Origin: an uncultured Bacteroides sp.
GTDB lineage: Bacteria > Bacillota > Clostridia > Christensenellales > CAG-917
Direction of reading: 5' to 3'
NCBI GenBank assembly: GCA_964644355.1
Contig: CAZXUW010000005.1
Location: forward strand, 24,232-88,231
Length of the DNA stretch: 64,000 nucleotides
Of this stretch, positions 5,327-56,933 are shown piece after piece. How positions within the stretch are numbered: position 1 is the first letter of the stretch; each line of letters starts with the position of its first letter. Position numbers and translations under genes: made by a program. The notes under the pieces were generated by a model. That model was not told where the DNA came from. It saw only the letters and a list, made by a program, of their open reading frames with translations, and did not search any database.

Positions 5327-5375
5327 ATGCCAAATTTCAAATCGGGTGTGGGCAGAGCCCACCTATAATTATTCG

Positions 5376-6290
5376 TTATTCATTTTTAAGATTGCAAAGC
5401 AATCTTAACTTTTCTACAACTTTTTCAAAATACTCCGGCAAATCACAATGAAAACGCATTTCCTCCCCTGTGCGAGGATGCTCTAGGACAAGCTCCGTTG
5501 CGTGCAAAAGTTGTCCGTTGTTATACAATGCGGTTGATCCGCCGTACACCTCATCCCCCACAATCGGATGATGCAAACTTTGTGCATGCACTCTTATTTG
5601 ATGTGTTCTGCCTGTTTCAAGTTCAAAGCGGACAAGCGTATACTGTCCAAATCGTTCAAGCACTCTATAGTGAGTCACGGCTTTACGTCCGTCCTCGTCG
5701 ATAGCCATCTTTTTTCTATCTTTTTTGCTTCTTGCAATAGGCTTATCGACTATTCCCTCATCCTCTTTGAAGTTTCCGTCGCAAAGTCCCAAATATATTC
5801 TGCGTGCAGTTTTTTTCTCTATTTGTTTGGCAAGATTGTGATGTGCATCGTCATTCTTTGCAACGACGATAAGCCCTGACGTGTCCTTGTCAAGCCTATG
5901 CACAATGCCCGGTCTAATAACGCCGTTAATTGCACTCAAGCTGTCCAGATTGTAAAGCAATGCATTGACAAGCGTATCACTTTTTGTATACGAGCTTGCT
6001 TGATGCACCACCATGCCCTGCGGTTTGTTTATCACGGCAAAATCCTTGTCTTGATATATTATATCAAGCGGAATGTTTGCAGGCTCCACGTCAAGCGTTT
6101 GCGGGGTGGGAAGCTCAAATTCGACTTCATCACCGCACTTTAGCTCAAAACCGCTTTTCTTATGCAAAATGCCATTGACAAAAGCACCGTCCTCATCAAG
6201 GACGGTCTTTATACTTGAGCGTGTTTTCCCCAATATATCGGAAAGGAAAACGTCAAGTCGCACGCTGTTTGTGTCAACGACATATTTCAT
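5376..6290 (-). CDS. rluD: RluA-family 23S rRNA pseudouridine synthase (RluD-like)
   Basis: N-terminal S4-like domain and the catalytic motif HRLDKDTSGLIVVAK. The C-terminal HQIRVH motif is also present. Confidence 0.9.
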   Translation of the reverse strand: MKYVVDTNSVRLDVFLSDILGKTRSSIKTVLDEDGAFVNGILHKKSGFELKCGDEVEFELPTPQTLDVEPANIPLDIIYQDKDFAVINKPQGMVVHQASSYTKSDTLVNALLYNLDSLSAINGVIRPGIVHRLDKDTSGLIVVAKNDDAHHNLAKQIEKKTARRIYLGLCDGNFKEDEGIVDKPIARSKKDRKKMAIDEDGRKAVTHYRVLERFGQYTLVRFELETGRTHQIRVHAQSLHHPIVGDEVYGGSTALYNNGQLLHATELVLEHPRTGEEMRFHCDLPEYFEKVVEKLRLLCNLKNE

Positions 6291-6320
6291 ATGCCTACCC
6301 CAACGGATTTATTTATTGTC

Positions 6321-7043
6321 TTATTCTTTTGGTTGTTCGTCATCGGCATTTTTGCCGTCTTTGTCACTCTCGCTCACTTCAAAGGTGTAATTATTGTCCG
6401 ATTTCATCATGGGATTGAGCGGAATGGGAGCGTCAAGCGGATCAATTTCCTCCTCGACTTTTACAGCACCTGCTTGCTCTTGTTCAAACTGTTTTTGGCT
6501 TTGTTTACCCTCTTTGACAAGCATGATGATAAGCACCACAATCAGAATAAATACGCCAATCGTGATAAATGAGTCAGCAATGTTGAACACCGGAAAATCT
6601 CTCCAAAAAGCAAACCAAATAAAGTCACGCACGTAGCCGAACTCTATTCTATCCACGTTGTTGCCGATTCCGCCGGCAAAGATAAACACAAGGGATATGC
6701 GAAGCCACTCACTCTCTTTGATTGCAAGAATGAGATATATGCCAATTCCTGCCAAGATTATGAATGTCAGCACTGCAAGTGCCATAACGTTGCCCTCAAA
6801 GATGCCAAAACCGCCACCGGTGTTTTCAACGTGCCCCAAATCAATCAATCCGGGGATAATTTCACGATATTCGTTCAAGCCAAAAAAGTATTTTTTGGTC
6901 AGCAAGTCGGCAACCAAAATGATTGCAACAACTGCAAGCTCCACAATATACAACCACCATTTCTTTTTGGCAATTTGCGTCCAATTGGACATAAATGCTT
7001 TGATCTTCTGTTTATATTCGCTTGATGAAGTTTTCTCGCTCAT
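6321..7043 (-). CDS. lspA: Lipoprotein signal peptidase II with N- and C-terminal extensions
   Basis: Conserved boxes NTGGGFG and FNIADS, 4 TM segments, AAGGAGAG RBS. It is 240 aa versus the usual ~160, with a ~65-aa acidic C-tail. Confidence 0.85.
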   Translation of the reverse strand: MSEKTSSSEYKQKIKAFMSNWTQIAKKKWWLYIVELAVVAIILVADLLTKKYFFGLNEYREIIPGLIDLGHVENTGGGFGIFEGNVMALAVLTFIILAGIGIYLILAIKESEWLRISLVFIFAGGIGNNVDRIEFGYVRDFIWFAFWRDFPVFNIADSFITIGVFILIVVLIIMLVKEGKQSQKQFEQEQAGAVKVEEEIDPLDAPIPLNPMMKSDNNYTFEVSESDKDGKNADDEQPKE

Positions 7044-7052
7044 AATCTCTCC

Positions 7053-7439
7053 TTAACCTCTGATTTGCGGAGGAATTGTAATGGTCACACCTTGCGGAGC
7101 AAAGAGGAAAATATTTTTTGTGATCTGCTGAATGCTTCCGTCAAGAGCGTAAATTGCACCGCTCATAAAGTCGAGAATGCGATACACCGACTGTTGATTG
7201 AGGGTGGAAAAATCAACGATAACCTGCTCTCTCATCTTCAAGTGGTCTATGAGAAGTTGCACGTCTTTGTATGTGCGTGGCGAATAGATCACAACACCCG
7301 ACGCCCCTGCTTGCCCATACTGCGGTTGCGTATAGCTGGGCACCTGCTGAACAGGCGTCTGTTGCGGTCGTGTGAAGCCACCCACGTTCGGTTGCGAACT
7401 GCGATTTGTTTGACTGTATCGTGAATATCTTTCGTCCAT
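7053..7439 (-). CDS. sepF: Cell division protein SepF
   Basis: The C-terminal domain YSPRTYKDVQLLIDHLKMREQVIVDFSTL...ALDGSIQQITKNIFLFAP is typical SepF. It is adjacent to ylmE. Confidence 0.85.
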   Translation of the reverse strand: MDERYSRYSQTNRSSQPNVGGFTRPQQTPVQQVPSYTQPQYGQAGASGVVIYSPRTYKDVQLLIDHLKMREQVIVDFSTLNQQSVYRILDFMSGAIYALDGSIQQITKNIFLFAPQGVTITIPPQIRG

Positions 7440-7465
7440 ATCCGTATCCTTTCTATATTTCTTGT

Positions 7466-8143
7466 CTATATTTCTTGCTTGTTGTACACTCTGTCTCCAA
7501 ACAGCACTCTGCCAAGCCTCAACATATTTGAGCCGTGCTCTAGTGCGATTTGATAATCGTTTGACATGCCCGCCGACAGATATTTTATATCTGTGTGTGG
7601 CATATTCGTCTCCTTTGCATCGTTATATATCCGCTCAAGCCTCTCATACAGCTTGTGCAAAGCGAGCTTATCCTCAAGGTTTGGAAGCACACTCATTATG
7701 CCCTCGACCTTAATGTGCGGATACTCTTGCATTTTTGCGATAAAGTCTATCACCTCATCGGGGCTTACACCGCCCTTTGTGATCTCTGCACCCATATTGA
7801 CTTCAACAAGGCAAGGCATAACGATGCCGTGTTTCACCGCCTGTTTTTCAATCTCAACGGCAAGCGATTGTCTGTCAAGCGAATGTATGAGATCAACCTT
7901 GTCAATGACGTATTTCACCTTGTTTGTCTGAAGTTGTCCAATAAAATGCCATTCATACCTTTCGTCATACTTCTCAACAAGCTCTTGCACCCTGTTTTCG
8001 CCCAACACAAAATCGGGAGCAATGCTCATAAACTCGTCTATCGTCTGCTTGCTCTGCGTTTTGCTTGCACCTATGAGCGTAACTGTTTGCGGATATTTTG
8101 CAACCTCGTCACGCACTCTTTTGAGATTGTCCACCAAAATCAT
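7466..8143 (-). CDS. yggS: YggS/YlmE-family PLP homeostasis protein
   Basis: Motifs LIGASKTQ (PLP Lys), HFIGQLQTNK and LSAGMSNDY. The start is chosen at ATG 8143, 1 nt after the upstream TAA; an alternative in-frame start is at 8164. Confidence 0.85.
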   Translation of the reverse strand: MILVDNLKRVRDEVAKYPQTVTLIGASKTQSKQTIDEFMSIAPDFVLGENRVQELVEKYDERYEWHFIGQLQTNKVKYVIDKVDLIHSLDRQSLAVEIEKQAVKHGIVMPCLVEVNMGAEITKGGVSPDEVIDFIAKMQEYPHIKVEGIMSVLPNLEDKLALHKLYERLERIYNDAKETNMPHTDIKYLSAGMSNDYQIALEHGSNMLRLGRVLFGDRVYNKQEI

Positions 8144-19448: not shown

Positions 19449-19473
19449 AGCATAATTTTTTGAAATTACGTCA

Positions 19474-19582
19474 CTTCTCCCATCCGGACTATACCGTCGG
19501 TCAAGGAATTGCACCTTGTCGGCACGCTCTGCGTGTTTGCGGACTATACCGCCGGTGAGGATTTGCACCTCGCCCTGAAGTG
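19474..19582 (-). promoter_or_regulatory. FMN riboswitch (RFN element) aptamer
   Basis: The minus strand reads CTTCAGGGCGAGGTGCAAATCCTCACCGGCGGTATAGTCCGC...GACAAGGTGCAATTCCTTGACCGACGGTATAGTCCGGATGGGAGAAG. This matches the conserved RFN cores GGGxxGGTGxAAxTCCxxACCGGCGGTA and GCCGACxGTxxAGTCxGGATGGGAGAAG. Confidence 0.92.
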
Positions 19583-19587
19583 TATTT

Positions 19588-44416: not shown

Positions 44417-45175
44417 TTATTCATCAAGGTACAAAGTGTCTATGTCACTCGAATTGTTTTCGTCTTTATAGCCATCAAATGTGTCTACAACATCATCAGC
44501 ATCAGTTTGATTTTCGCTTGCAAGTGCGATCTCCAGAAGCTTTTTCTTGTCCTCTTCACTTATATTTTCAAGCTTAACTCCCTCTGCTCTCATCTCCTCT
44601 TTTTCAAGTGCGATTTTGTCTTTGATAAAGGAGCCTATGACAAGTGCTATGACAAGACACATGGGGATCACAATGAGCACAACATAGCCGTACCACTGCG
44701 ACAAAAAGCCTCTCAATCCGCCTATAAACAAAGACTTGCGGACATACTTTGCTTTAATGTTGTCAGGATTCAACTGCCAGTTGTCGGCAGAAGGACTATT
44801 GTCACCTTGCGTTCTGAAATATGCAATTGAACCGTCATCATCAAGCACGATTTCAATTATGCGGTGAGTTTCGTTGTAATTGCCGTTCGGTGCCAAAAAC
44901 GTGATAATATCACCAACTTTCAGCTCGTTTACGTCATCCACTTCCTTGCAGATGATCACCTCGCCGGGCTCAATGGTGCCACTCATGCTATCCGTCAACA
45001 CGTCATAAAGCCTATAACCAAAAATTGAAGTTTCTTGTCCGCCACTTCTTTGAATAAGCATAACGGCAACAACCACCACCAAAAACACGAATAGCAAAGC
45101 AACCACCATCGTGGATACAATGTTGTAAATTTTCTTTGTCTTTGATATAGGTTTTTGATCTTCTATTTCTGCCAT
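44417..45175 (-). CDS. sipW: SipW-type (S26B) signal peptidase I, paralogue 1, with extended acidic C-terminal tail
   Basis: N-terminal TM segment, Ser box VLTDSMSGTIEPG, His box ETHRIIEI, and RTQGDNSPSAD. The order and spacing match B. subtilis SipW (LSGSMEP...THRIV...TKGDN). There is a C-terminal TM segment plus a ~65-aa D/E-rich tail. The start is ATG 45175, with no clear RBS. Confidence 0.8.
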   Translation of the reverse strand: MAEIEDQKPISKTKKIYNIVSTMVVALLFVFLVVVVAVMLIQRSGGQETSIFGYRLYDVLTDSMSGTIEPGEVIICKEVDDVNELKVGDIITFLAPNGNYNETHRIIEIVLDDDGSIAYFRTQGDNSPSADNWQLNPDNIKAKYVRKSLFIGGLRGFLSQWYGYVVLIVIPMCLVIALVIGSFIKDKIALEKEEMRAEGVKLENISEEDKKKLLEIALASENQTDADDVVDTFDGYKDENNSSDIDTLYLDE

Positions 45176-45183
45176 ATATGTTT

Positions 45184-45204
45184 GTACGCACACGAGGTGC
45201 GTAC
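45184..45204. other. 8-bp-stem hairpin between the McrC-like and sipW-1 genes
   Basis: GTACGCAC-acgag-GTGCGTAC. The T7 run is on the plus strand only (45205..45211). Confidence 0.6.
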
Positions 45205-45216
45205 TTTTTTTAGAGT

Positions 45217-48024
45217 TTAGTCTTGATCGTCGGAGTCTTTTTCCTCTGCCTTGGTTGTCATGCTGAACACGTCACCAAACGGATCTGTTATGCCACTGTC
45301 CGAGCTGAAGTGTATTCCGCCAACACCGACTTTATCCTCGTCCACGGCTTCAAGTTTGCCCTTTCTTCCCGTCGGTTGTGAATACTTCTGATTGAGCGTT
45401 GTGGGGCTCAATGCGTTGGGATCCTTACGTGGTTTTGACGATTTCTTTTTCTTTGGCGGTTGAGGTTCATTTTCAACATTTTGCGCATCAATCACCACTT
45501 TATCGTCATTTTTGGGCTGTTCATCTGCCGTTTTTGTCAATTCATCGACTTTTTCGTCTTTGACTTCAACGTCTTTTGGTTGTTCCTCGTTGGCAACTTC
45601 TCGTGTAGGTTCCTCCTGCTCGTCAGGCTTCACCTGCTCGACAGATTCTTGCTCTTGAGGCTTTGGTTTGCGGTTATACTTGCGTTTGGGTTTATCCTCT
45701 TTTTTCTCATCGAGATTGCCGAGTTTTGCCCCTTCACCCCAAGGTGTTACACTGCCATCACCCTTGAAGCTTATGCCCATACCTTGAGTATCTTCTATGC
45801 GACCGCCAACGTTTATACGCAATTCAGATTTCGCAACTTCTTGCACTTGTTGTTGCTCCTCTTGCGTATCCTCACTTGCAGACGTGGTTGGTTGTTCAAC
45901 AAGCTCTTGTTCAACCACTTTTGGTTTGCGATTGTATTTACGTTTTGGCTTTTCAACCTTGTTTTCATCAAGATTGCCCAGATTTGCACCCTCACCCCAA
46001 GGCGTAACACTGTCATTCTCTTTGATGTGTACGTCACCGACTGCGACCTTGTTTTCATCAACAGGCGTGAGATCAACCTCTTTCTTCGGCTTATTTTCAC
46101 CACTCCAAGGATCGATTTCCTCATCGGATTTTGCAATACGCACTTTGCCTTTCTTGTGCGGTTTTTCCTCATCGGCTTTAGTCTCTTGGACAGGTTGTGC
46201 AACGTCTGGCTGTTGCGTTTCCACTTCGCTCTCAACTTGAGATACCGGCACGAATGTTTCCATGCTCTCAAGTTCTCTATCAAGCTTCTCGTCTTGCACG
46301 GCTTTTTTACGGCGAGCTTCTTCCATTTCCTCAATGGAAGCATTGATCTTGTCTGTATTCTTATCTTCAAGCTCAAGATTTTCGTGCTTGTCAATCTTGA
46401 TCTTTTCAAGTTTCTTGGCTTCTTCTTCCCTGCGCTTATACTCTGCGATCTTTGCCTTTTGGAAGCTGAACGGATCCATGCCGAAATAGGTTGAGTCACT
46501 CTCAACTCCATTCTTTTCAAGCTCCTCTCTCTGCTTGCGGAATGCCTCGGCACGCTTCTTGATGTCCTCTTTGCGTCTGCGGATACGCTCTTGTCTGTCT
46601 CTCTCATCAAGTTCCTCTTGCTTGATGCGACGATATGACGTGAGACAACGATCAATAGCGTCACGAGCTTTGGCAATTTCCTCTTGCTTAAGCTTATCGT
46701 CGTCAGGACGCTTGAACACTTTACGCACCTCAAACAAGTGCTGATCAAACGTCTCAGCATCCGGCTCGAGGTCGACTTCTTCTTGATCTGCCTTTGGAGG
46801 CATCTCCTTGAGTCTCTCAACCTCAACAGGACGCTCCACAACCACTTCGACTTCTATCTCTTGAGGCTTTTCAATCTCCTCGATTTCAGGCTCTTCAGGC
46901 GGAATTTCAGTGTCGGCATCCTCATCCTCTTGAGGTTTGACCTCCTCGATATTCTCCTGTTCGTCCTCATTCTCCTCCGAATCGTCAAGCTTTTGAGCAT
47001 ATTCGTCTCTTTCAAGCTTGTCTTTGTCAAAGTCCATTTCACCAACACGCAGGAAGTCGGCAAATTCCTTATCTTCCATATCGAAGTCGGTTTCGCACTG
47101 ATCGTACAAGCTTTCAAACACCATCGTGTTGAGTGTGAGCATGCTGTTGAGTCTTGCACTGCTCTCGTCGTCGATTGGGAAATCTTCCACCTCGTCGGAC
47201 GTTGAAAAACCTGCCGTCTGTTGATACGTCTCGATAAACTGCCACAAAGTGAGAGCCTTCTTGAAATTTGGCTCCTTCAAAATGACGTTTGTACGCATGA
47301 TAGGCGGACGAACAGGTGCGGAGTTACGCATCGACTTTGCAAATGACGATGACAAGAAGTCTGTGATAATGCGGTCAATTTTTGCAACACGCTCGATCTT
47401 GGTGAGTGTGTCGGGATCAAGACGCATAATCTCATCAAAGCTTAATTGTGCAAAATACTCCGTTCTATAGGTTATTTTCTTGCTTGGAAGATTAAATCTA
47501 GACTCAACGTCAAGCTCCAAGACGTCCTGTGTTGCGGATGCCTTTTTGATCTTGTCATAACGCATTGTGACAAAGTCCTTGAGCTTGAGAAGCAAGGTGT
47601 AAATAAAGCGGTTTTCATAAATCTCAAAGGATTCTTCCTTTGTGATATTGAGAATTTTTGATGGTGTGACGTCACCCGTTTTCTCGTCAACCTTGGAGAT
47701 CATGTTGGTGTGCTGGGCAAGATATTTGACAGACTCTGTCGATATACTTCTTGCAAGCGAAACGTCAACGATATCCTCCTCTTGGACGATGAATTTTCTT
47801 GGGTTACGCACGATTGTATCGAGATTTGGAAGGATACTTTCAATGGTATCGATCCAATCTATGGAGATGTCTTGTACGAGGCGTTTTTTGGCAAGCTTAA
47901 ACTTGGATACGCCTTTATCTACACGTTTTTTGAATTGCTCATAAAAGCCCTCATCCTTGAGGACTGAAACAATCTTGTTCGCATACGATACGTACACTTC
48001 TCTTGTAATCTTATTGTCAGCCAT
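45217..48024 (-). CDS. McrC-N-terminal-domain-like protein lacking a nuclease, with a ~620-aa charged low-complexity repeat tail
   Basis: 935 aa. Residues ~1-315 look globular and include ESFEIYENRFIYTLLLKLKDF (compare E. coli McrC NEDTLANRIIKSTLAILI). No hhhDxK nuclease motif is found. Residues 316-935 are E/K/D/Q-rich with internal repeats. The gene lies immediately downstream of an McrB-like gene. Confidence 0.6.
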   Translation of the reverse strand: MADNKITREVYVSYANKIVSVLKDEGFYEQFKKRVDKGVSKFKLAKKRLVQDISIDWIDTIESILPNLDTIVRNPRKFIVQEEDIVDVSLARSISTESVKYLAQHTNMISKVDEKTGDVTPSKILNITKEESFEIYENRFIYTLLLKLKDFVTMRYDKIKKASATQDVLELDVESRFNLPSKKITYRTEYFAQLSFDEIMRLDPDTLTKIERVAKIDRIITDFLSSSFAKSMRNSAPVRPPIMRTNVILKEPNFKKALTLWQFIETYQQTAGFSTSDEVEDFPIDDESSARLNSMLTLNTMVFESLYDQCETDFDMEDKEFADFLRVGEMDFDKDKLERDEYAQKLDDSEENEDEQENIEEVKPQEDEDADTEIPPEEPEIEEIEKPQEIEVEVVVERPVEVERLKEMPPKADQEEVDLEPDAETFDQHLFEVRKVFKRPDDDKLKQEEIAKARDAIDRCLTSYRRIKQEELDERDRQERIRRRKEDIKKRAEAFRKQREELEKNGVESDSTYFGMDPFSFQKAKIAEYKRREEEAKKLEKIKIDKHENLELEDKNTDKINASIEEMEEARRKKAVQDEKLDRELESMETFVPVSQVESEVETQQPDVAQPVQETKADEEKPHKKGKVRIAKSDEEIDPWSGENKPKKEVDLTPVDENKVAVGDVHIKENDSVTPWGEGANLGNLDENKVEKPKRKYNRKPKVVEQELVEQPTTSASEDTQEEQQQVQEVAKSELRINVGGRIEDTQGMGISFKGDGSVTPWGEGAKLGNLDEKKEDKPKRKYNRKPKPQEQESVEQVKPDEQEEPTREVANEEQPKDVEVKDEKVDELTKTADEQPKNDDKVVIDAQNVENEPQPPKKKKSSKPRKDPNALSPTTLNQKYSQPTGRKGKLEAVDEDKVGVGGIHFSSDSGITDPFGDVFSMTTKAEEKDSDDQD

Positions 48025-48063: not shown

Positions 48064-49572
48064 TTAGAACAACTTCTTAAGTCTGTTGATGTATTCCTTG
48101 CTCTCTTGCATATTTTCCTCGCCGAAAAGCTCGCTCAAATAGAGGATCAAGCCGTCGATTTCGTCACGGATGTAGGACAAGTTCAATGATTCAAACTTAC
48201 GGAAAATCTTGTTGCAGAGCACGTAGTCGAGACCGTCGATTTCCGTACCGCCACAGCCAACGTAGCTCGGAACAAACTCTTTGAGCTGTTTCACGATACG
48301 GTTGCCAAACGCAAGACGGAAGTGTTCGATAACATAGTCGTCAAGTTGGTTAACCTTGTCCAAAACCTCTTGAGAGACCTTGTAGATCTCTTGAGATTCC
48401 TTGAACATAGCCTCAAGATGCTTGTAGCTGATAAAGATATTATCCGCCCACGGAGCTTCAAATGGAACGCCCTTGCTGTTGATGTTGATAGGCATAGCAC
48501 GGTCGTAAACCTTATCTGAAATAGCAAACGTGGAGTCGTCGTTGTTTGCGGTGCCGATAAACCACATATTTTGCGGAAGTCTAAATCTACCCTTGTCGAT
48601 ATGCTTGGGGTCGTTTGCCCAACCGGACGGAACGAGGTCAACAATCCACTCGTCACGAGAAGGCATTTCGAGAATTGACAACATTTCTGCAAAATAGTAC
48701 TCAACACGCGCGATGTTCATTTCGTCGAGGACGGTGAGGTAAATTTGGTCATTCCAAGTTGCCTCGTACATCTTCTTCAAAACTTCCGTTTCATTGAAAC
48801 GCTTTGTAAATTCGTTGAAGTAGCCGAAAAGTTCGGTACGATCACGCCAAGACGGCTGAACGGAAGCGATGGTTGCGGGGTTGTTGAGGAAGATACCCAT
48901 AGCGTGCGGAAGTGACGTCTTACCTGTACCGGAAATTCCCTGCAAAATCATAAGACGAGAGGTTGACATACCCGCGATAAACAGTCTTATAATACGTGGA
49001 TTGTAATACAATCTCATCCTTGAGCAAGCGAAGTTGCGGAAGCGGTCGCAAAGCTCGGGAAGTGTGATTTCGTCATCGAATACAGGCGGAACGTAGTTCT
49101 CGTAAATCTTGTCGATTTCGGTGAGCTTGTAGAAACGAGACTCGCCTGTTGGAGACTGTTCTTGTTTTTTCTCGCCTTCTTCTTCACCCTCGTAGTTGCC
49201 GATATCACTCACACGCATACCCAAAATACGATCCTTTTCAGCGGACATTTTGATGATTTGCTTTTTGAGGTTGGCACACTCCTCAACGAGGTCTTGCGGA
49301 AGGACTTTGGTCTTGCCCAAGCGAGAGAGCTTGCGAAGTCCCAGGATAGCAAGCACGATGATTGCCACGATAACGGCAACGATAAGTACGATAAAGATAA
49401 TGGCAACCGCCCATTCGCCGGCACCAAAATATTCTGTATAGTTGGAAAAAGCATCGGTGTAGCCGTCGTTGTAGAAGATATGCAAAAATCCCCAGAAAAT
49501 ACTGCCGATTCCCTTGTCGTAGAAGGCACCGAGAAATGCTTTTAGAAATTCAAAAACCAAATTTATATTCAT
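48064..49572 (-). CDS. Membrane-anchored McrB-like AAA+ (AAA_5) GTPase
   Basis: Walker A GISGTGKTS. McrB box LTVLDEMNIARVEYYFAEMLSILE (compare McrB DEINRANLSKVFGELMMLIE). FIGTANNDDSTFAISDKVYDRA (compare MNTADRS..RRF). The N-terminal TM segment AVAIIFIVLIVAVIVAIIVLAILGL is followed by RKLSRLGKTK. Confidence 0.75.
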   Translation of the reverse strand: MNINLVFEFLKAFLGAFYDKGIGSIFWGFLHIFYNDGYTDAFSNYTEYFGAGEWAVAIIFIVLIVAVIVAIIVLAILGLRKLSRLGKTKVLPQDLVEECANLKKQIIKMSAEKDRILGMRVSDIGNYEGEEEGEKKQEQSPTGESRFYKLTEIDKIYENYVPPVFDDEITLPELCDRFRNFACSRMRLYYNPRIIRLFIAGMSTSRLMILQGISGTGKTSLPHAMGIFLNNPATIASVQPSWRDRTELFGYFNEFTKRFNETEVLKKMYEATWNDQIYLTVLDEMNIARVEYYFAEMLSILEMPSRDEWIVDLVPSGWANDPKHIDKGRFRLPQNMWFIGTANNDDSTFAISDKVYDRAMPININSKGVPFEAPWADNIFISYKHLEAMFKESQEIYKVSQEVLDKVNQLDDYVIEHFRLAFGNRIVKQLKEFVPSYVGCGGTEIDGLDYVLCNKIFRKFESLNLSYIRDEIDGLILYLSELFGEENMQESKEYINRLKKLF

Positions 49573-49693: not shown

Positions 49694-50623
49694 TCATTCA
49701 GAATCGCTATCGCTTATGACAGCATCGTCATCGACGTCTTGAACATCACTCTCGCTTTGAGCATTCTCATCCGTAGCGACGTTTTGGTCAGCATCAGATT
49801 GAGAGAGCGAGGCAAGATATTCTTGAGCAAGACGGCGTTTTTCCTCATCGGAAAGAGCATCCACCGTCACAACTTGCTCTGATTGCACCTTGCGTTCATT
49901 TTCAAGCTTTGCGATGACAAGCGTGCGGACAAGCACAAATGCATAAATCACAAACAAAAGGATGAGCGGAAGCACGACAACACAGAAGAAGCGTGTACGC
50001 CCCTGCTCTGGATCCTGAATCCAGTTGGTGAAACCGCCAACATTCTTGAGCACATCGCCATCCGTAGCGGTTGTTCCATCTGACGAACCCCAAGTTGCCT
50101 TGATGTTGGAAGCATAAGTATTGCTTTCAACGTTGCCGATGATGTCATTGTTGCGTTCACTTTCCGGCTTTGCAAGCTCCGCTGCCGCCTCTTGCCAAGA
50201 GTGATCCTGATTGTCACCTCGAGTGACGTATGCAATCAATTTGCCGTTTGTATCAAACTTTTTCGCCACGATTCTGTGGGTGTTCAAAACACCTGTACGC
50301 ACCCTGAACGTGACAACCTGCCCGATTTGGAGCTCACCATCGGTTGTGTAGTCGTATGTTTTGCCGACAATCATATCGTCCTTGTCAAAAGTCGGACTCA
50401 TAGAGTCGGATGCGACCACCATATACACGGTATCTCCAAAAGTAGGCAAACGGAACTCCTCATCACTCGTAGAAGCAATGGTGAAAATAGCCACAACGAG
50501 TGCAAACACGACAAGCACGATACAGCAAGCCGTTGCCACCCAATTGAGGATATTCATCACGTTCTTCTGCCTCGGAGTGAGTTCTTTCTTTTCTCTCTTA
50601 TGAGAGCCTTTTGCTGATTCCAT
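49694..50623 (-). CDS. sipW: SipW-type (S26B) signal peptidase I, paralogue 2, with insertion and extended acidic C-terminal tail
   Basis: N-terminal TM segment, Ser box VVASDSMSPTFDKDD, His box NTHRIVAK, and TRGDNQD. There is a ~60-aa insertion before the C-terminal TM segment and a ~85-aa tail. A GGAAGG RBS is present. Confidence 0.8.
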   Translation of the reverse strand: MESAKGSHKREKKELTPRQKNVMNILNWVATACCIVLVVFALVVAIFTIASTSDEEFRLPTFGDTVYMVVASDSMSPTFDKDDMIVGKTYDYTTDGELQIGQVVTFRVRTGVLNTHRIVAKKFDTNGKLIAYVTRGDNQDHSWQEAAAELAKPESERNNDIIGNVESNTYASNIKATWGSSDGTTATDGDVLKNVGGFTNWIQDPEQGRTRFFCVVVLPLILLFVIYAFVLVRTLVIAKLENERKVQSEQVVTVDALSDEEKRRLAQEYLASLSQSDADQNVATDENAQSESDVQDVDDDAVISDSDSE

Positions 50624-50844: not shown

Positions 50845-50937
50845 TAGTAATTTACAAAACGGCAGTTTTTGTCCGTAAACGCAATGTGACATAAGGCATT
50901 TGCAATCACCATGATGCTGTTGGAGCAATGCGTCAAA

Positions 50938-51162
50938 GTGCCGATTGACGACACCACTATAAAATGTCAAAGATTTCACAGCACACTGTGCTTGAGATAT
51001 AAAAAACGAAAAATAACATACAGAAATAAGGTTTTTTTAGAAAGGGGGCTTTATTTCGATAAGGAGAAAAACGATGAAAAAGAAAGGTTTGCTTATCTCA
51101 ACAATCGCAATGGTTGTTGTGCTGATCGCAGCTCTTACTACATCAACTTACGCTTGGTTTAC
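50938..51162 (+). repeat. Left arm of a 225-bp inverted repeat (promoter + 5'UTR + first 29-30 codons of TasA-like gene A)
   Basis: Identical to the reverse complement of 53063..53287 at 224/225 positions. The single mismatch is at 51143 (TCA Ser versus ACA Thr). Confidence 0.95.
50975..51003 (+). promoter_or_regulatory. Promoter of TasA-like gene A with a spacer palindrome
   Basis: TTCACA (50975..50980), 17 nt, TATAAA (50998..51003). The palindrome AGCACA-c-TGTGCT (50980..50992) lies in the spacer. Confidence 0.5.
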
Positions 51163-52138
51163 TGTGTCAACCACTACGAATATTGATGGTTTTACCGTCA
51201 GCGTAGAAGCCGGTAACGTTATGGCAATTGGTTTGAACGCACAAGGTTATACATCATACAGCGATGCTGCATCCCCAGACAATTTTGTTTCAGGAACTGT
51301 AACCTATACACATGGTGGTGATGATGATGGTGTTGCTAATGGATATTGGACAGGCAACCAAGGCCTTGGTGCATCTATTTCGCATGATATTGTTTGGTCA
51401 ACTCAAAGTAAAGCTGTTGGATTCTCAAGTGCAGGAGCACTTTCAGGTGCAACATATGCAAACACAAAGTTTTATAAGAATGATGGCACAGTTGAAAATA
51501 ATAACGGATCATCTTTCGATTTAGCAATTGCTGCAAATGGTTCCACAACATCCATGGAAGCTCCACGCCTTGCTATTGAAAACAAGAAAACTACAGCTGA
51601 TACCGACGAGTCCACTAATGGTGACTATGTTTATATGTTCCTTGGTGCACAACCAACACAAGCTTTGATGGATAATACAAACATTTTGCATGTTGTCATC
51701 CAACCACAAGGCACAGGCACAAGAATTGGTATGGCCGCAGCTATCCATGTTGCATACAGAGTTAATGGTGGTGATTGGGAAGATGTTGATGTCTATGGTG
51801 CTGCAAACAAACATTATAATGACGAAAGAGCCTCGACAGAAGCTAAAATTTATGGTGATATTACTGGTACAGGCAAATCCAATGGTTTAGATGCAAATTC
51901 TTTGTCATATTCTACGACAACATATCAAACCACTATAACGGGTGCAAAGAGTGTTGATATCCCGTTGACACAATACACCGATGCTACATCAAGTGCACCG
52001 TTTGATCAAATTGAATTGATAATTTATGTTGCAGGTGCAGACAGCGATTGCCTTGACTCAGCAAAGAATGGTTCTATCAGAATTGGCATATTCTTCGGAG
52101 CACAAGAAGCAATCACTTCAAATGAAGGGAATAACTAA
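51074..52138 (+). CDS. TasA/camelysin-like secreted protein A with SipW-cognate-type signal peptide
   Basis: Signal peptide MKKKGLLISTIAMVVVLIAALTTSTYAWFT (compare TasA ...GGGTWAAFND and CalY ...GGGTFAYFSD). The C-terminus KNGSIRIGIFFGAQE resembles TasA QGNSIKLQFSFEATQ. An AAGGAG RBS is present and SipW genes are adjacent. Confidence 0.7.
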   Translation: MKKKGLLISTIAMVVVLIAALTTSTYAWFTVSTTTNIDGFTVSVEAGNVMAIGLNAQGYTSYSDAASPDNFVSGTVTYTHGGDDDGVANGYWTGNQGLGASISHDIVWSTQSKAVGFSSAGALSGATYANTKFYKNDGTVENNNGSSFDLAIAANGSTTSMEAPRLAIENKKTTADTDESTNGDYVYMFLGAQPTQALMDNTNILHVVIQPQGTGTRIGMAAAIHVAYRVNGGDWEDVDVYGAANKHYNDERASTEAKIYGDITGTGKSNGLDANSLSYSTTTYQTTITGAKSVDIPLTQYTDATSSAPFDQIELIIYVAGADSDCLDSAKNGSIRIGIFFGAQEAITSNEGNN

Positions 52139-52160
52139 TAAAACCAAAATTGATAACGAA

Positions 52161-52188
52161 AAAACACGGCTCGATTGAGCCGTGTTTT
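52161..52188. terminator. Bidirectional terminator between the convergent TasA-like genes
   Basis: AAAACACGGCTC-gat-tGAGCCGTGTTTT. Confidence 0.65.
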
Positions 52189-52209
52189 GCGTTATAAGAT
52201 GATTACGAA

Positions 52210-53151
52210 TTAGGTTGAACTTTCTGCTTTCTTATCTGCAATAAAGTTAATTGTTATAACTGACTTAACGTTTGCTGCATTACTATTGCAGTCTTGATCT
52301 TTACCATTGATAAAGAGTTTAATATGGATTTGATGAATTTCACCTTGTGGGACAATATCAGTTCCGTTGCCAGTAATTTCTATTTCATATGTCTTTGCGC
52401 CAGGATTCCAAGTTATATCCGGTATTTCAATTGGATTATAATTGGTTGTACCATTTATTGTTGTCGTTGCACTATGACCCTCGTACACATCAATTATGTC
52501 TGACCAACTGCCATTATCAATTTTGTAGATGAAAGAAATAGCTGCATTCATGCCCAATACTGTTGAAGATGAATCAGGGTTAACGCCTATAACGCATTTT
52601 ACTTTTGTAACATTTTGTTTGGCAGGTGCAACGCCAAATGCAACGTCCAGATAGTCGCCAGTATTGTCTTCACCTTTGATACCATTTGCAACTGCATTTT
52701 CAATTTCGGTTCTTGTAACATCTTGACCGCTACCAGAAGCTTTTACCCAATTCCCTTCAGGTTGCAAAGTTTCATCAATAGTACCCGAAGAATCATTACC
52801 TGCGACATAGGCTGTACCTGTATAAACAGCTTTCTTCATGCCAGCAAGACTCAAACCGGTATCAACCTCAAAACCAAGACCTTCTGTACCATCCCACGCA
52901 TTTTTAGTGATATCATATGAAAGACCAGAACCGCTAACAAATAAATTTTGTCCGATAGAATCGCCTGTATTTATTTTATTTGTTTTGGAAACACCAATTG
53001 TCAAATCAGAGTCAGAAGTAACTTCAAAATTTATTGGCCTAACTTCAGTTTTCGAAGCTGCTGTAAACCAAGCGTAAGTTGTTGTAGTAAGAGCTGCGAT
53101 CAGCACAACAACCATTGCGATTGTTGAGATAAGCAAACCTTTCTTTTTCAT
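52210..53151 (-). CDS. TasA/camelysin-like secreted protein B with SipW-cognate-type signal peptide
   Basis: Signal peptide MKKKGLLISTIAMVVVLIAALTTTTYAWFT, identical to A except for one residue. The mature part is highly diverged from A. C-terminal motif IHIKLFINGKDQDCNSNAANVKSVITINFIA. Confidence 0.7.
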   Translation of the reverse strand: MKKKGLLISTIAMVVVLIAALTTTTYAWFTAASKTEVRPINFEVTSDSDLTIGVSKTNKINTGDSIGQNLFVSGSGLSYDITKNAWDGTEGLGFEVDTGLSLAGMKKAVYTGTAYVAGNDSSGTIDETLQPEGNWVKASGSGQDVTRTEIENAVANGIKGEDNTGDYLDVAFGVAPAKQNVTKVKCVIGVNPDSSSTVLGMNAAISFIYKIDNGSWSDIIDVYEGHSATTTINGTTNYNPIEIPDITWNPGAKTYEIEITGNGTDIVPQGEIHQIHIKLFINGKDQDCNSNAANVKSVITINFIADKKAESST

Positions 53152-53287
53152 CGTTTTTCTCCTTATCGAAATAAAGCCCCCTTTCTAAAAAAACCTTATT
53201 TCTGTATGTTATTTTTCGTTTTTTATATCTCAAGCACAGTGTGCTGTGAAATCTTTGACATTTTATAGTGGTGTCGTCAATCGGCAC
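53063..53287 (-). repeat. Right arm of the 225-bp inverted repeat
   Basis: Reverse complement of 50938..51162 (224/225). It contains the mirrored promoter (53222..53250) and palindrome (53233..53245). Confidence 0.95.
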
Positions 53288-53676
53288 ATTTGCGTAAAGA
53301 TTTGCGATGCGAATCTTTTATGCAATGATATCCCTTTGGGATGATATCCAACTGCTTTGGATTGTGGCATATCTGACAATGCAGACAAGTGCACTTATAC
53401 ATTATGTATATTAATTATAGCCTTTGCGTATGCCAATGTCAACACTAAATTTGTATTTTTGTGCTTTTTCAGCGATTTAATACAACAATTTGTTTTATTT
53501 TTTAATACTGTTGTCGTTTTATCCAACAGATGTATTGCAATTTTCTTGTTGCTCATCAAGCATTTGTTTTGGCTGTTTTGCAAGATTTTATGAGCAAAAT
53601 GCGGATTTCACCACTCTTAAAAGGATATCATCGGCAAAGCCGATATCATTTGCAAGCAATGCTTGCAAGTTTTTTG

Positions 53677-54759
53677 TCAGCTTGCGTAGAAATTCAAGCC
53701 CATCTTGCAGTAGCCACCGATGGCGGAGTCGATGCAATCAAAATCACTGCCCTCAATCCATATGCTGAGATAGCAGTACATGATGTCTCCCTTGGCTAGA
53801 TCAAGACTGTTTTGAAAGACAAATTCGTCAGATGCGAATGGTGTGGTTGCTTTGTAGCCGTGCAATTGTGCGGTCATCTTGGTGTCTGCATCCGCATTGA
53901 GCATGGCATCATAGTCTTTGAGATAGTAATATTTGCCATTTGGATGCACGTTAAGACCGACTTCTCTGTCGTACGCAACGCATTCGATATAGCCGTCCTC
54001 TGCCGTTCTGCCAACGTTGTAGGCATTGTCGGCAAGACGCTCACTGTCACTCAAAGAGGCATATACGTTGATGTTGGTGGCACTCTCCCCATCTTCAAGC
54101 CCGATAGGATTCTTGAGGCTGTATCCCCACATAACTCGCACGGAGTCTTGCAAATCGTGATCGTCAAACTCAAGCGTCATTTCATAATCGACGTGAGCTT
54201 CCTCGTTGCCGTTGTTGCGGAGCATGAAGGTGAATGCTATATATTGCTCGCCATTCATCTCGCCAAGCTCAAACTCGTCGGCATTGAGCAAGGAATATAC
54301 CTCGCTTTCGCTGAGCGGAGTTTCCGTGCCATAGCGTGAATCATAGCTGATGTTCCAGATGTCATCGGGACCGTCGGCGTTGAGGTATGGCGTCCAATAT
54401 TCATTGTCCATGGACAAAGAAATCGACTTGTCCTTGTTGCGATTGTTGACCGTGATACGCACGTTGTTTTCTTCCATAAGCAACAGCATGATGTACACGA
54501 TTGACGTAACCACAAGAGCAAACACAAGCATGATGAGCATCGCCCTCTTGACCTTGGCACGAAGCTCCTCTCTCTTGACCTTTTTGGACGCAACGATACT
54601 GTCCTCCCATTCCTTTTTCAAACGGGCGGTCTCTTTTGCGGAATTGCGAGCACTCTTTTTGCTCGATTTCGCCTTTTTGGCAGATGAGGACTCCTCAAGC
54701 TCATCGTAAGCTTGCTCGTCCATCTCATCCTGCATTCTTTCAATATCGTTTTCGCTCAT
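53677..54759 (-). CDS. Single-pass (type II) membrane protein with an ectodomain ending in the TasA-like C-terminal motif
   Basis: A charged cytoplasmic N-terminus of 72 aa, then the TM segment AMLIMLVFALVVTSIVYIMLLLM, then a ~265-aa ectodomain. The C-terminus CYLSIWIEGSDFDCIDSAIGGYCKMGLNFYAS aligns with A (LIIYVAGADSDCLDSAKNGSIRIGIFFGA) and B. Confidence 0.65.
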   Translation of the reverse strand: MSENDIERMQDEMDEQAYDELEESSSAKKAKSSKKSARNSAKETARLKKEWEDSIVASKKVKREELRAKVKRAMLIMLVFALVVTSIVYIMLLLMEENNVRITVNNRNKDKSISLSMDNEYWTPYLNADGPDDIWNISYDSRYGTETPLSESEVYSLLNADEFELGEMNGEQYIAFTFMLRNNGNEEAHVDYEMTLEFDDHDLQDSVRVMWGYSLKNPIGLEDGESATNINVYASLSDSERLADNAYNVGRTAEDGYIECVAYDREVGLNVHPNGKYYYLKDYDAMLNADADTKMTAQLHGYKATTPFASDEFVFQNSLDLAKGDIMYCYLSIWIEGSDFDCIDSAIGGYCKMGLNFYAS

Positions 54760-54846: not shown

Positions 54847-56655
54847 TTAGAACTTATGGTATGTTCCGTCACCTGCAAAGTAGCCGTATGGCACCCATTT
54901 GCCGATCGTGTCGTCAAAATAGCCGTTGTCAACAATCTCGCCGTTGAGGTCTGTGTAGGTGTAGTCTATCCATCTGCCTTCCTCGTCAAAGTAGCCGTCA
55001 TAGACGTTGCCGTCTTTGTCAACCCACTGTGCCTTGTCGTTGTAAGAGCCTTCCTTGGTGACGTCAAACTGCTCGTATTCAACCCAGTTGCCTTCCACAT
55101 CGAAATAGCCGTTGAACACGTTGCCATCCTCGTCAACCCACTGACCTTTGTCATTGTATTTGCCGATAAGCTCCGGCTCACCGTCGTTCTTGTTCTCGAT
55201 ACGCATCGTGATGCCAAATCCGCTCACGCCGGCATCCATGCCAAGCCCACCGAACATGCTGTCACTCTTGTATTCGTTGAAAAGCTTTTCTTCCTTGTCG
55301 AAATCAGCCTTGATTTTCTTGGGTTTCTTTGGCTTTTTGACTTCCGGTTGAGCAGGTCTTATAGGTGCGGATACGCTGTTTTCGTCTTGATCTACGACAG
55401 TCTCTTTCTTCTTGTCAGACGGCTTTTCCTCATCTAATGCTTGCTCGTCCTTGGACTTCTCTTTTTCAGCCTTATCTGCTTTGTCCTCAAGCGGACGATC
55501 TACGCCAAGCTCGCTCTTTTTCTGCGATGCAAAGCTCAATGCCAAAGCGCTCTGCACGTCGCCCTCATAACGCATGCGAGACATCTCGTCAAGAAGCTTG
55601 TTGTCTCTCTCATCTGCCTCGGGTGAGTCTTGCTCGATGAGCTTTGCCTGTGCTTGAACTCTCTCCTCCGCCGCCTTGCGTGCATTCTGCTTCTGCTGTT
55701 CAAGACGCACTTGATATGGCGATTTTGCAAGCTCCGGACGTGGCGATGTGGGCATAACCCTCTCTGCATCATTCTCTTTTTCTTTCTCGATGGCGGAATT
55801 TCTCAATGCCTCAAGCTCGTTTGCAACCGCTTTTTCTTTGGCATCTAGCACCTTTTGGAGCTTCTTGAGATACTGATCTTTCTTTTCTCCGACAGGATCT
55901 TTCAAAAGCAAAAATTCATTGGTAACCCATCTTGAAAGTTTGCTTACCGCCCTACCTGTCAAGAGCTTTATGCCTTCTTTCTTGAAACGCGCGTATTGAC
56001 TTGGTGAGTCAACCCCTTCCATAATCAAGCCGATTTTGTTGCTCTTGCAAAAACTTACAAGCATTGCTAGCACCTTTTTCTTGTTTTGAGCGGTGTCAAA
56101 ATAGCTTGCTTCACATCTCAAATAGTCAAAATTAAACTCCGCAAGCACGTCTAGTGCGTTGTAGTCCTCACCAAACGCCGATGCACAAATTTTGTAGCCG
56201 AGCTTACGCAAACGGTTGTATCTCTTTTTGCCTTCCTCATCAAGCCCCACAAGATTGGACACAAAGAAGGATATGACGAGATTGCTCTTTTTGTAGCCCA
56301 AATCCTTGAGTGTTGAGGTGAGCACGTCAAAATCTTTGTCATTATCCAAAAATCTTGTCGTAATGGGCAGACAATACGTGAGGTTGTCAGGGATAAGGAA
56401 ATTCTCTCGCATAACGAGGTCATAATTGACAAGCTCCTCAAGGGCAATGACGTTAAGCTCGTTGATACGCACGGAATTTTCTGCAATATAAAAATAATTG
56501 CATACGCTCATTCTCCCCAAATACCTGTCGTTGAGAACTTGAAACGCATCAACAAAAACTACCTTCTTGCTCTTGCCGGAAGCTTCAACAACTCCCCTGA
56601 AGAAAAAGTCAATAGGTTTGTACAGCGTTCTTTTTGCGTATGCCGTAGTATTCAT
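54847..56655 (-). CDS. Degenerate EAL-domain protein with a charged linker and C-terminal aromatic/Gly repeats
   Basis: Residues 1-245 follow the EAL-domain layout: YKPIDFF, VDAFQVLNDR, YFYIAENSVRINELNVIALEEL, LRKLGYKICASAFGEDYNALDVLAEFNFDYLRCE and LIMEGVDSPSQYARFKKEGIKLLTG. Most catalytic residues are replaced. Residues 250-490 are K/E-rich. Residues 495-602 contain repeats of YNDK(G/A)QWVD.DGNV..GYFD.EG.W..Y. An AGGTGGGA RBS precedes ATG 56655. Confidence 0.65.
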   Translation of the reverse strand: MNTTAYAKRTLYKPIDFFFRGVVEASGKSKKVVFVDAFQVLNDRYLGRMSVCNYFYIAENSVRINELNVIALEELVNYDLVMRENFLIPDNLTYCLPITTRFLDNDKDFDVLTSTLKDLGYKKSNLVISFFVSNLVGLDEEGKKRYNRLRKLGYKICASAFGEDYNALDVLAEFNFDYLRCEASYFDTAQNKKKVLAMLVSFCKSNKIGLIMEGVDSPSQYARFKKEGIKLLTGRAVSKLSRWVTNEFLLLKDPVGEKKDQYLKKLQKVLDAKEKAVANELEALRNSAIEKEKENDAERVMPTSPRPELAKSPYQVRLEQQKQNARKAAEERVQAQAKLIEQDSPEADERDNKLLDEMSRMRYEGDVQSALALSFASQKKSELGVDRPLEDKADKAEKEKSKDEQALDEEKPSDKKKETVVDQDENSVSAPIRPAQPEVKKPKKPKKIKADFDKEEKLFNEYKSDSMFGGLGMDAGVSGFGITMRIENKNDGEPELIGKYNDKGQWVDEDGNVFNGYFDVEGNWVEYEQFDVTKEGSYNDKAQWVDKDGNVYDGYFDEEGRWIDYTYTDLNGEIVDNGYFDDTIGKWVPYGYFAGDGTYHKF

Positions 56656-56933
56656 TTCCCACCTTTCCACACGCACGCTAGCGGAGCGTACGAGCGCATA
56701 ATACTCTAATATACTTTTTCAATTATACCATTAGACAACAAAATTGGCAATAGGTTTTGATATTTTTTTACATTTTGTACAATTGCTTGCAATTAAATCC
56801 AAATTGAAACGGGCAAATATAGTCAAATATTTTGCGATTTGCCACACGGCAAACGAAACGTGCAAAACACACCATAACTGCAACTTGCATATCATAACAA
56901 TTCAAAAAGCCCTCGCAATGAGAGCTTTTTGTC

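Follow-up and report, generated by a model that had tools for sequence, protein, structure and literature searches.

A locus is described here in which two genes for secreted proteins probably exchange places behind a single promoter. The window analysed is a stretch of 64,000 nucleotides (nt) from an uncultured bacterium of the Christensenellales (GenBank assembly GCA_964644355.1, contig CAZXUW010000005.1, positions 24,232 to 88,231), and it contains two convergent paralogous genes, here called A and B, whose 5' ends form a long and nearly perfect inverted repeat. This arrangement is probably best read as a two-slot system in which an active and a stored gene are interchanged by homologous inversion, as in slpA/slpB of Lactobacillus acidophilus. 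Found across many uncultured gut Clostridia, the layout probably lets a cell flip a piece of DNA and so change the gene standing behind the sole strong promoter. The components of the locus are listed below (positions are those of the window, with the strand in brackets; aa, amino acids; bp, base pairs).

49694-50623 (-): signal peptidase I of SipW/archaeal type, extended C-terminally by membrane and acidic sequence; a conserved gene flanking the segment, divergent from gene A
50935-51162 (+): left repeat arm; begins with 139 nt of 5' leader, including an AAGGAG ribosome-binding site, and runs on through codons 1-30 of gene A (the entire signal peptide and the first two to three mature residues)
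51074-52138 (+): gene A, 354 aa; encodes an all-beta secreted protein from a family without a name and lies in the SipW-proximal slot, which lacks the conserved promoter
51143 (+): mismatch in the repeat core, Ser24 in A and Thr24 in B
51163-53062: inter-arm segment, 1900 nt, with both convergent gene bodies; proposed invertible unit, of which orthologous segments are oppositely oriented in related species
52161-52188: 12-bp hairpin flanked by an A-run and a T-run, separating the stop codons of A and B; can terminate both ways
52210-53151 (-): gene B, 313 aa; shares 30% identity with its paralogue A and fills the C-proximal slot, downstream of the consensus promoter
53063-53290 (-): right arm; cassette of identical design preceding gene B
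53677-54759 (-): gene C, 360 aa; N-terminus in the cytoplasm, a single membrane span, then a domain on the outside; conserved other flank, co-oriented with the expression slot
54847-56676 (-): EAL-domain (cyclic di-GMP phosphodiesterase-like) protein; conserved neighbour upstream of C

A repeat search of the window returned arms of 228 nt that were 99% complementary and lay 1900 nt apart, and in a gapped blastn alignment they matched over 228 nt with two mismatches, each arm covering positions -139 to +88 counted from its ATG. The near-perfect inverted repeat reported in an earlier, sequence-only reading of this DNA was thereby confirmed; its 225-nt core (50938-51162) displayed one mismatch only, at 51143, where TCA in A faces ACA in B. 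A 40-mer from the arm occurred exactly twice in the window, against zero occurrences expected from 100 shuffles. Identity between A and B ended at nt 89 of both open reading frames (ORFs), in codon 30, and beyond it the bodies shared ~35% DNA identity in an ungapped comparison and 30% protein identity (E = 1e-34), so that the abrupt transition into diverged bodies described in the same reading was also recovered. ORFs 50911-51186(+) and 53045-53287(-), which it had considered spurious, gave identical translations over their common part and are the repeat read in another frame.

A scan at one genome per species identified 40 related loci, to which more were added by contig look-ups. In at least 17 loci, one of them on a chromosome assembled from long reads (L001, CP091723), a pair of convergent family genes carried such an inverted repeat at their 5' ends. 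Arms were 170 to 510 nt long, extending from -79 to -421 at their outer end and to +85 to +110 at their inner end relative to the ATG, and were 92.7 to 100% identical, mostly 98 to 100%. The inner boundary was fixed at about codon 29 to 31 in almost all loci. Over the first 87 coding nt, median identity was 99.4% within a locus versus 79.3% between loci, and over the 60 nt upstream of the ATG it was 100% versus 37%; gene bodies were 32 to 40% identical. The arm identity shows concerted evolution: judged from these comparisons, recombination between the arms is ongoing and keeps them alike. The earlier proposal of recombination or gene conversion limited to the 5' cassette is supported by these values, and the comparison with orthologous loci gave the opposite of an ordinary 5' divergence resembling that of the gene bodies.

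In an alignment of 33 family members, the first 30 residues, MKKKGLIISTVVMVVVLIASLTTATYAWFT, were almost invariant even at 38% overall identity; because the signal peptide is nearly invariant in all homologues, amino-acid identity of the A and B N-termini is expected and can largely be attributed to family-wide purifying selection. Purifying selection on the peptide is no explanation for the DNA identity of the arms and of the 139 nt upstream. As a separate observation, the arms of L009 (3605-3787) and L041 (6907-7089) were 100% identical to each other while their flanks were only 93.7% identical; that cassette is either held under tighter constraint than the sequence around it or passed from one lineage to another. 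Dispersed intergenic repeats of ~85 to 225 nt, 91 to 98% identical, were encountered across the locus, in the gap between the DUF2357 and McrB genes, around C and beside the arms (L001: 4187-4323, 7708-7844, 11988-12124 and 14022-14158; L004: 5694-5902, 7179-7387 and 11797-11881), and they lengthened the inverted repeat in some species.

The orientation of each locus was defined by the position of its A-like gene. The A-orthologue lay next to SipW in the window and in L001, L009, L010, L011, L041 and L043, and next to C in L004, L007, L008 and L044 to L046. A neighbour-joining tree built on the mature regions placed sister proteins in opposite slots on several occasions: L001_11833 (C side) with L007_6231 (SipW side), L007_3979 (C) with L043_7022 (SipW), and L021_11246 and L033_8001 (C) with L017_7080 (SipW). 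The nearly identical proteins L009_3699 (SipW) and L041_10804 (C) also occupied opposite slots; the flanks of these two loci were 93.7% identical, while 2 kilobases (kb) of the segment aligned in reverse at 92.7%, with a rearrangement breakpoint ~320 nt outside the arm. In L017 (two genes) and L033 (one gene), with flanks 93 to 94% identical, the common gene was reversed. By this comparison of sequences the segment has been inverted repeatedly in evolution. These inversions between related species support the earlier suggestion that exchange between the two arms would turn the 1.9-kb body segment around.

Promoters, scored as matches to the consensus (n/12), were arranged asymmetrically around the repeat of the window:

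53442-53414 (-): consensus sigma-70 promoter TTGACA-17-TATAAT (12/12), directed into the segment at B from a position 124 nt beyond the right arm
50844-50816 (-): promoter-like TTGACA-17-TAAAAT (11/12), pointing away from the segment towards sipW; the only strong site on the left
50992-51019 (+), twin at 53233-53206 (-): weak in-arm site TTGAGA-16-TAACAT (9/12), the promoter named in the sequence-only reading

The same left and right arrangement was repeated in L001, L021 and L004. No terminator-like site was found between the promoter at 53442-53414 and the right arm. Among family genes with C as upstream neighbour, 25 of 29 were preceded by a sense TTGACA-17/18-TAxxAT site scoring 11 to 12, compared with none of the 15 that have SipW as upstream neighbour, where the best site reached 9/12. 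The exact motif TTGACA-N17-TA[TC]AAT was present in 25 loci, always on the C side and in an alignable, AT-rich orthologous context; these C-side promoters lay 108 to 953 nt from the ATG and always past the outer arm end. No arm of any locus contained a conserved promoter of at least 10/12, only matches of 8 to 9, and the long arms (290 to 421 nt) of L001 and L021 lacked any sense site of at least 9/12. In the 3.3-kb region of the window that holds the in-arm site, 16 sites of at least 9/12 were found, versus 9.6 +/- 3.3 in shuffles, and on its score the in-arm site of the window is indistinguishable from chance. The statement that each arm contains a -35/-10 promoter was therefore not sustained, the conserved 11-12/12 promoter being located outside the arm and on one side only.

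Leaders were also compared with Rfam. No riboswitch or known RNA was detected in the arms, and only a sub-threshold Gut-1 RNA upstream of the promoter was returned. The Gut-1 matches fell in the spacer between C and the promoter (window 53580-53651(-), 31.9 bits; L011 12972-13039(+), 42.6 bits; gathering score 50) and lay on opposite strands relative to C. In most species, alternating purine-pyrimidine GC/GT runs, such as cgcacgcccacgcacgc, occurred 10 to 45 nt downstream of the conserved promoter; the leader of the window differs. These runs could form a 5' stem-loop or a binding site.

Each arm amounts to a complete 5' cassette: it carries most of the messenger RNA leader with its ribosome-binding site, followed by the full signal peptide and two to three mature residues. 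In the proposed interchange, the sole strong promoter would stay in place on the C/EAL side, beyond the repeat, and every inversion would swap the gene body joined to it. B would presently occupy the expression slot and A would take it after a flip, the SipW-proximal gene being a stored alternative, silent or weakly expressed. Exchange would most likely proceed by general (RecA-type) homologous recombination, probably infrequently, because the arms measure 170 to 510 nt and no invertase gene is linked to them; the breakpoint ~320 nt outside the arm in the comparison of L009 and L041 fits homologous rather than site-specific exchange.

The second gene seemed to be an optional component. Loci L012, L014, L019, L031 and L033 displayed a single family gene in the C-proximal slot, with EAL, C, family gene, SipW and McrB all co-directional; because such loci exist, the second gene is, as far as gene content tells, dispensable and not an obligate partner. 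Within one species (L044, L045 and L047 versus L046 versus L048, with flanks 97 to 99.7% identical), a 100%-identical A-type protein, P0044, was associated with three different SipW-side partners, and the arm of L046 was extended by sequence found on one side only in L044, the outer edge thus differing between strains. SipW-side genes were intact (at least 300 aa) in all loci but one, the exception being L026, where the copy had decayed to a 70-aa remnant.

The gap between the convergent genes was a hot spot for insertion of defence or toxin-antitoxin-like cargo, exemplified by an Abi-like gene with a 205-aa ORF, SecB/MqsA-like pairs, DUF4238, Abi_2 and Fic (L001 9119-10486, L044 8642-9669, L048 1680-2546, L068 3578-4582, L059 3685-5059 and L064 4036-5022). 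The inter-arm segment varied from 1.8 to 4.7 kb across loci because cargo inserts between the family genes.

A broader and distinctly tentative view is that, throughout an order of gut Clostridia, the universal leader and signal-peptide cassette acts as a handle for recombination that can be carried from place to place, driving recombinase-independent flipping between expressed and stored surface-protein genes, replacement of the stored gene by horizontal exchange and carriage of defence or toxin-antitoxin cargo between the genes. Horizontal replacement is suggested because one identical A protein has three different partners. If this view is true, the cassette would constitute a signal-peptide-anchored, shufflon-like system for a family without known relatives or fold.

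Several observations weigh against the interchange of an active and a stored gene. No orientation polymorphism within species was found in the informative contigs obtained for P0004, P0074, P0044, P0012, P0078, P0100 and P0111: a single orientation was displayed by the ten informative contigs of P0074, the three of P0044, the two of P0004 and the two to three of P0078 and P0012, in a comparison made on consensus assemblies. Such uniformity within a species means that switching, should it take place at all, is a rare event, or that one of the states is favoured. Promoter scores denote matches to the consensus and not mapped transcription starts, weak sites of 8 to 9/12 recurred at -49 to -74 from the ATG inside the arms of several loci, and a basal promoter in the arms may, as far as these motifs indicate, provide low-level expression of both genes. 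The SipW-side copy retains an intact leader, ribosome-binding site and ORF, and one species (L044 to L046) had no consensus promoter near the gene. No recombinase gene was found among the 20 neighbouring ORFs, ~20 kb either side, in the window.

Some of these points would suit a simpler arrangement in which A and B are two subunits expressed together from identical in-arm promoters, leaders and signal peptides, kept alike by gene conversion, inversions being harmless by-products. Both copies are indeed complete from leader to full ORF, weak promoter-like sites recur in the arms and the signal peptide is under extreme purifying selection throughout the family. Yet even arms of 290 to 421 nt, as in L021 and L001, lack a conserved promoter of at least 10/12, the conserved consensus promoter stands outside the repeat on one side only, and single-gene loci together with partner swaps between strains argue against an obligate heteropolymer. 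Co-expression of two subunits is accordingly considered unlikely, and the identical regulation of two subunits envisaged in the sequence-only reading does not agree with a conserved promoter confined to the C side. Still less credence is given to the idea that near-invariant signal-peptide codons merely seed recombination between inverted paralogues, with conversion tracts spreading outwards and with identity and flips devoid of function. The fluid outer boundary (-79 to -421, and different in strains L044 and L046), the decayed copy of L026 and the uniform orientation among assemblies would be expected from such a neutral process. It accounts poorly for the inner boundary at codon 29 to 31 and for a promoter consistently kept out of the repeat, and the survival of intact SipW-side genes in all but one locus, despite the missing promoter, implies selection.

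Site-specific inversion by an unlinked invertase, acting like Piv or Gin on a short core in the YAWF-coding end of the arm and with the long identity as a secondary feature, was ranked slightly lower again and is improbable. The sharp inner edge of identity at the same codon in many species speaks for it, as does the fact that gene-altering inversions are usually driven by recombinases, some of them without a nearby one (PMC9881135). It is opposed by the lack of any recombinase within ~20 kb either side in the window or conserved in the syntenic neighbourhood across loci, by arms of 98 to 100% identity that are ample for RecA-type exchange, and by the breakpoint that L009 and L041 display well outside the arm. 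A linked invertase was considered and rejected, the neighbouring ORFs being housekeeping genes (ComM, DprA, TopA, TrmFO, HslVU, HisS and GlyA on one side; IspA, XseA and SpoIIIA on the other) and the putative serine recombinase of L003 belonging to a lineage-specific insertion. In that locus, which encodes the closest relative of protein A, 4.9 kb are inserted between sipW and the family gene (4243-7471), with a 452-aa ORF and a 555-aa protein that by eye resembles a large serine recombinase. An assembly artefact or a very recent duplication, finally, has next to no probability. Short-read contigs do often break off right at the repeat (that of L035 reaches only nt 89 of the gene, and those of L047 and L055 consist of the segment with partial arms), but an artefact, raised as a possibility in the earlier reading, is excluded because the same architecture recurs in many independent assemblies including the long-read chromosome L001, and bodies only 30% identical indicate old paralogues.

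A homology search returned 180 unnamed relatives, all from metagenome-assembled genomes of Clostridia, Christensenellales or Acutalibacteraceae; protein A itself was found on a single contig in the entire protein collection searched. The family displayed a conserved C-terminal G-x-D-x-DC motif, and a G-D-x-DC motif at the C-terminus is the sole feature that gene C has in common with A and B. Following the -3/-1 rule, cleavage is predicted at TYA|WF, with W28 as the first mature residue, which would place the end of the repeat two to three codons past the cleavage site. A confident AlphaFold (AF2) model (pLDDT 83, pTM 0.82) comprised an N-terminal helix at residues 5 to 22, a disordered linker and an all-beta body.

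A and B had been called TasA-like, and this designation could not be maintained. At E<=0.1, A and B matched nothing in Pfam or NCBIfam; the models of TasA, BsaA and camelysin were hit by none of the 33 aligned members at E<=1; and the model of SipW-cognate signal peptides (TIGR04088) was unmatched by A, B or these members. The family profile gave only a chance match among PDB sequences (E = 1.9), hhalign of this profile against TasA gave 0.7% probability, and a Foldseek comparison of the AF2 model with PDB and BFVD gave no match at E<=0.001, every TM-score being below 0.2. Homology to TasA or to any other named family was rejected on these sequence, profile and fold comparisons. Context alone fits: a SipW-type peptidase gene adjoins A, and the LTT[AST]TYA|WFT of the family resembles, by eye, the GGTWA|AFND of TasA. 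Literature searches returned nothing on this protein family.

The SipW-type peptidase gene adjoining A was syntenic in ~25 loci. Its product scored 3e-13 against TIGR02228 and 3e-12 against the SipW model, in each case short of the curated cut-off. The conserved gene order reads DUF2357 protein, McrB-like ATPase, SipW, family gene(s), C, EAL, transfer RNAs and IspA. The McrB-like AAA protein (48064-49572(-)) has an N-terminal membrane region and was 83 to 96% identical across loci, compared with 35 to 61% for SipW and 37 to 62% for protein A. It was always followed by the DUF2357 protein (45217-48024(-)), which carries a long acidic low-complexity tail; this pair, syntenic with the secreted-protein locus, is conserved far above the level of a restriction system. 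At the far end of the conserved block lay a second S26 signal peptidase (44417-45193(-); Pfam Peptidase_S26, 2.9e-05), and weak second SipW-like matches were found at the equivalent position in L001, L010, L021 and L033. The EAL gene contained a 114-nt periodic repeat (54961-55158(-)) with copies 76% identical, encoding C-terminal G-x-W-V-D-x-D-G-N...G-Y-F-D units that were also present in L005 and L021. A flavin mononucleotide (FMN) riboswitch at 19468-19586(-), scoring 103 bits, was unrelated to the inverted repeat.

Christensenellales-like Clostridia are widespread in the gut, most of them uncultured, and hardly anything has been learned about their cell surface. If the proposed interchange is true, the locus would be the first candidate switch for surface variation in this group. 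Inversion as a principle has long been known; what is new is the protein family and the taxon, and the design is conserved from species to species with unusual clarity. The family, without annotation despite its 180 homologues and lacking a name, a domain or a structural match, is probably highly expressed. By analogy with other gene-altering inversions, the locus would add to them a conserved example without a linked invertase gene. On the practical side, short-read assemblies of such loci break at the repeat, and the orientation that an assembler settles on may be arbitrary.

Among known systems, the tfpQ/tfpI genes of Moraxella bovis and Moraxella lacunata (invertase Piv) and the G segment of phage Mu (invertase Gin) invert at sites of 26 to 34 bp by means of a dedicated linked invertase, and possess one constant 5' part. 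They share with the present locus two convergent variable bodies, a crossover at the boundary between constant N-terminal and variable parts and a promoter outside; here, in contrast, there are two complete genes and long repeats, without a linked invertase. At sapA of Campylobacter fetus, recombination depends on RecA, the invertible element itself carries the promoter and lies between cassettes that diverge from it, and as many as eight homologues participate. The resemblance lies in the probable mode of recombination, in the long conserved 5' regions that the surface-protein paralogues share and in the single promoter, whereas here the promoter is fixed outside a segment that holds two convergent genes.

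The TasA/TapA/SipW operon of Bacillus subtilis (PMC9674648, PMC10151520) likewise places a SipW-type peptidase gene beside its presumed substrates, and in TasA, as here, a small-x-small site closes the signal peptide and an aromatic-F motif comes next. By the same analogy, the membrane-anchored product of gene C could play an anchor role like that of TapA. The present family differs from TasA by the lack of any detectable similarity in sequence, profile or fold and by its C-terminal G-x-D-x-DC motif, absent from TasA.

Programmed gene-altering inversions are usually associated with recombinases, some being devoid of a nearby one (Milman et al. 2023, PMC9881135); in these and in the UU172/MBA switches of Ureaplasma (PMC3047005), as here, inverted repeats inside coding sequences exchange gene parts and yield alternative surface or specificity proteins. 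Those loci are typically recombinase-associated, unlike the one described here, and the text of the survey (PMC9881135) mentions neither 'signal peptide' nor 'Christensenell'.

The closest known system, judged by analogy of layout, is the slpA/slpB interchange of L. acidophilus, in which inversion places a silent gene behind one slp promoter (Boot et al. 1996, reviewed in PMC3666127). Both systems display two oppositely oriented alternative genes for secreted surface proteins on one segment and, outside it, a single strong expression site, here predicted from the promoter consensus. The flipped state of slpA/slpB was present in 0.3% of chromosomes in culture (PMC3666127), a rarity that fits the uniform orientation of assemblies here. 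Protein family and taxon are unrelated, and the slpA/slpB flip is known from cultures, whereas both orientations of the present segment are known from comparing the sequences of related species. What sets the present locus apart is an exchange cassette of 170 to 510 nt, with leader and entire signal peptide, in a design that recurs across many species, some of them with a single gene.

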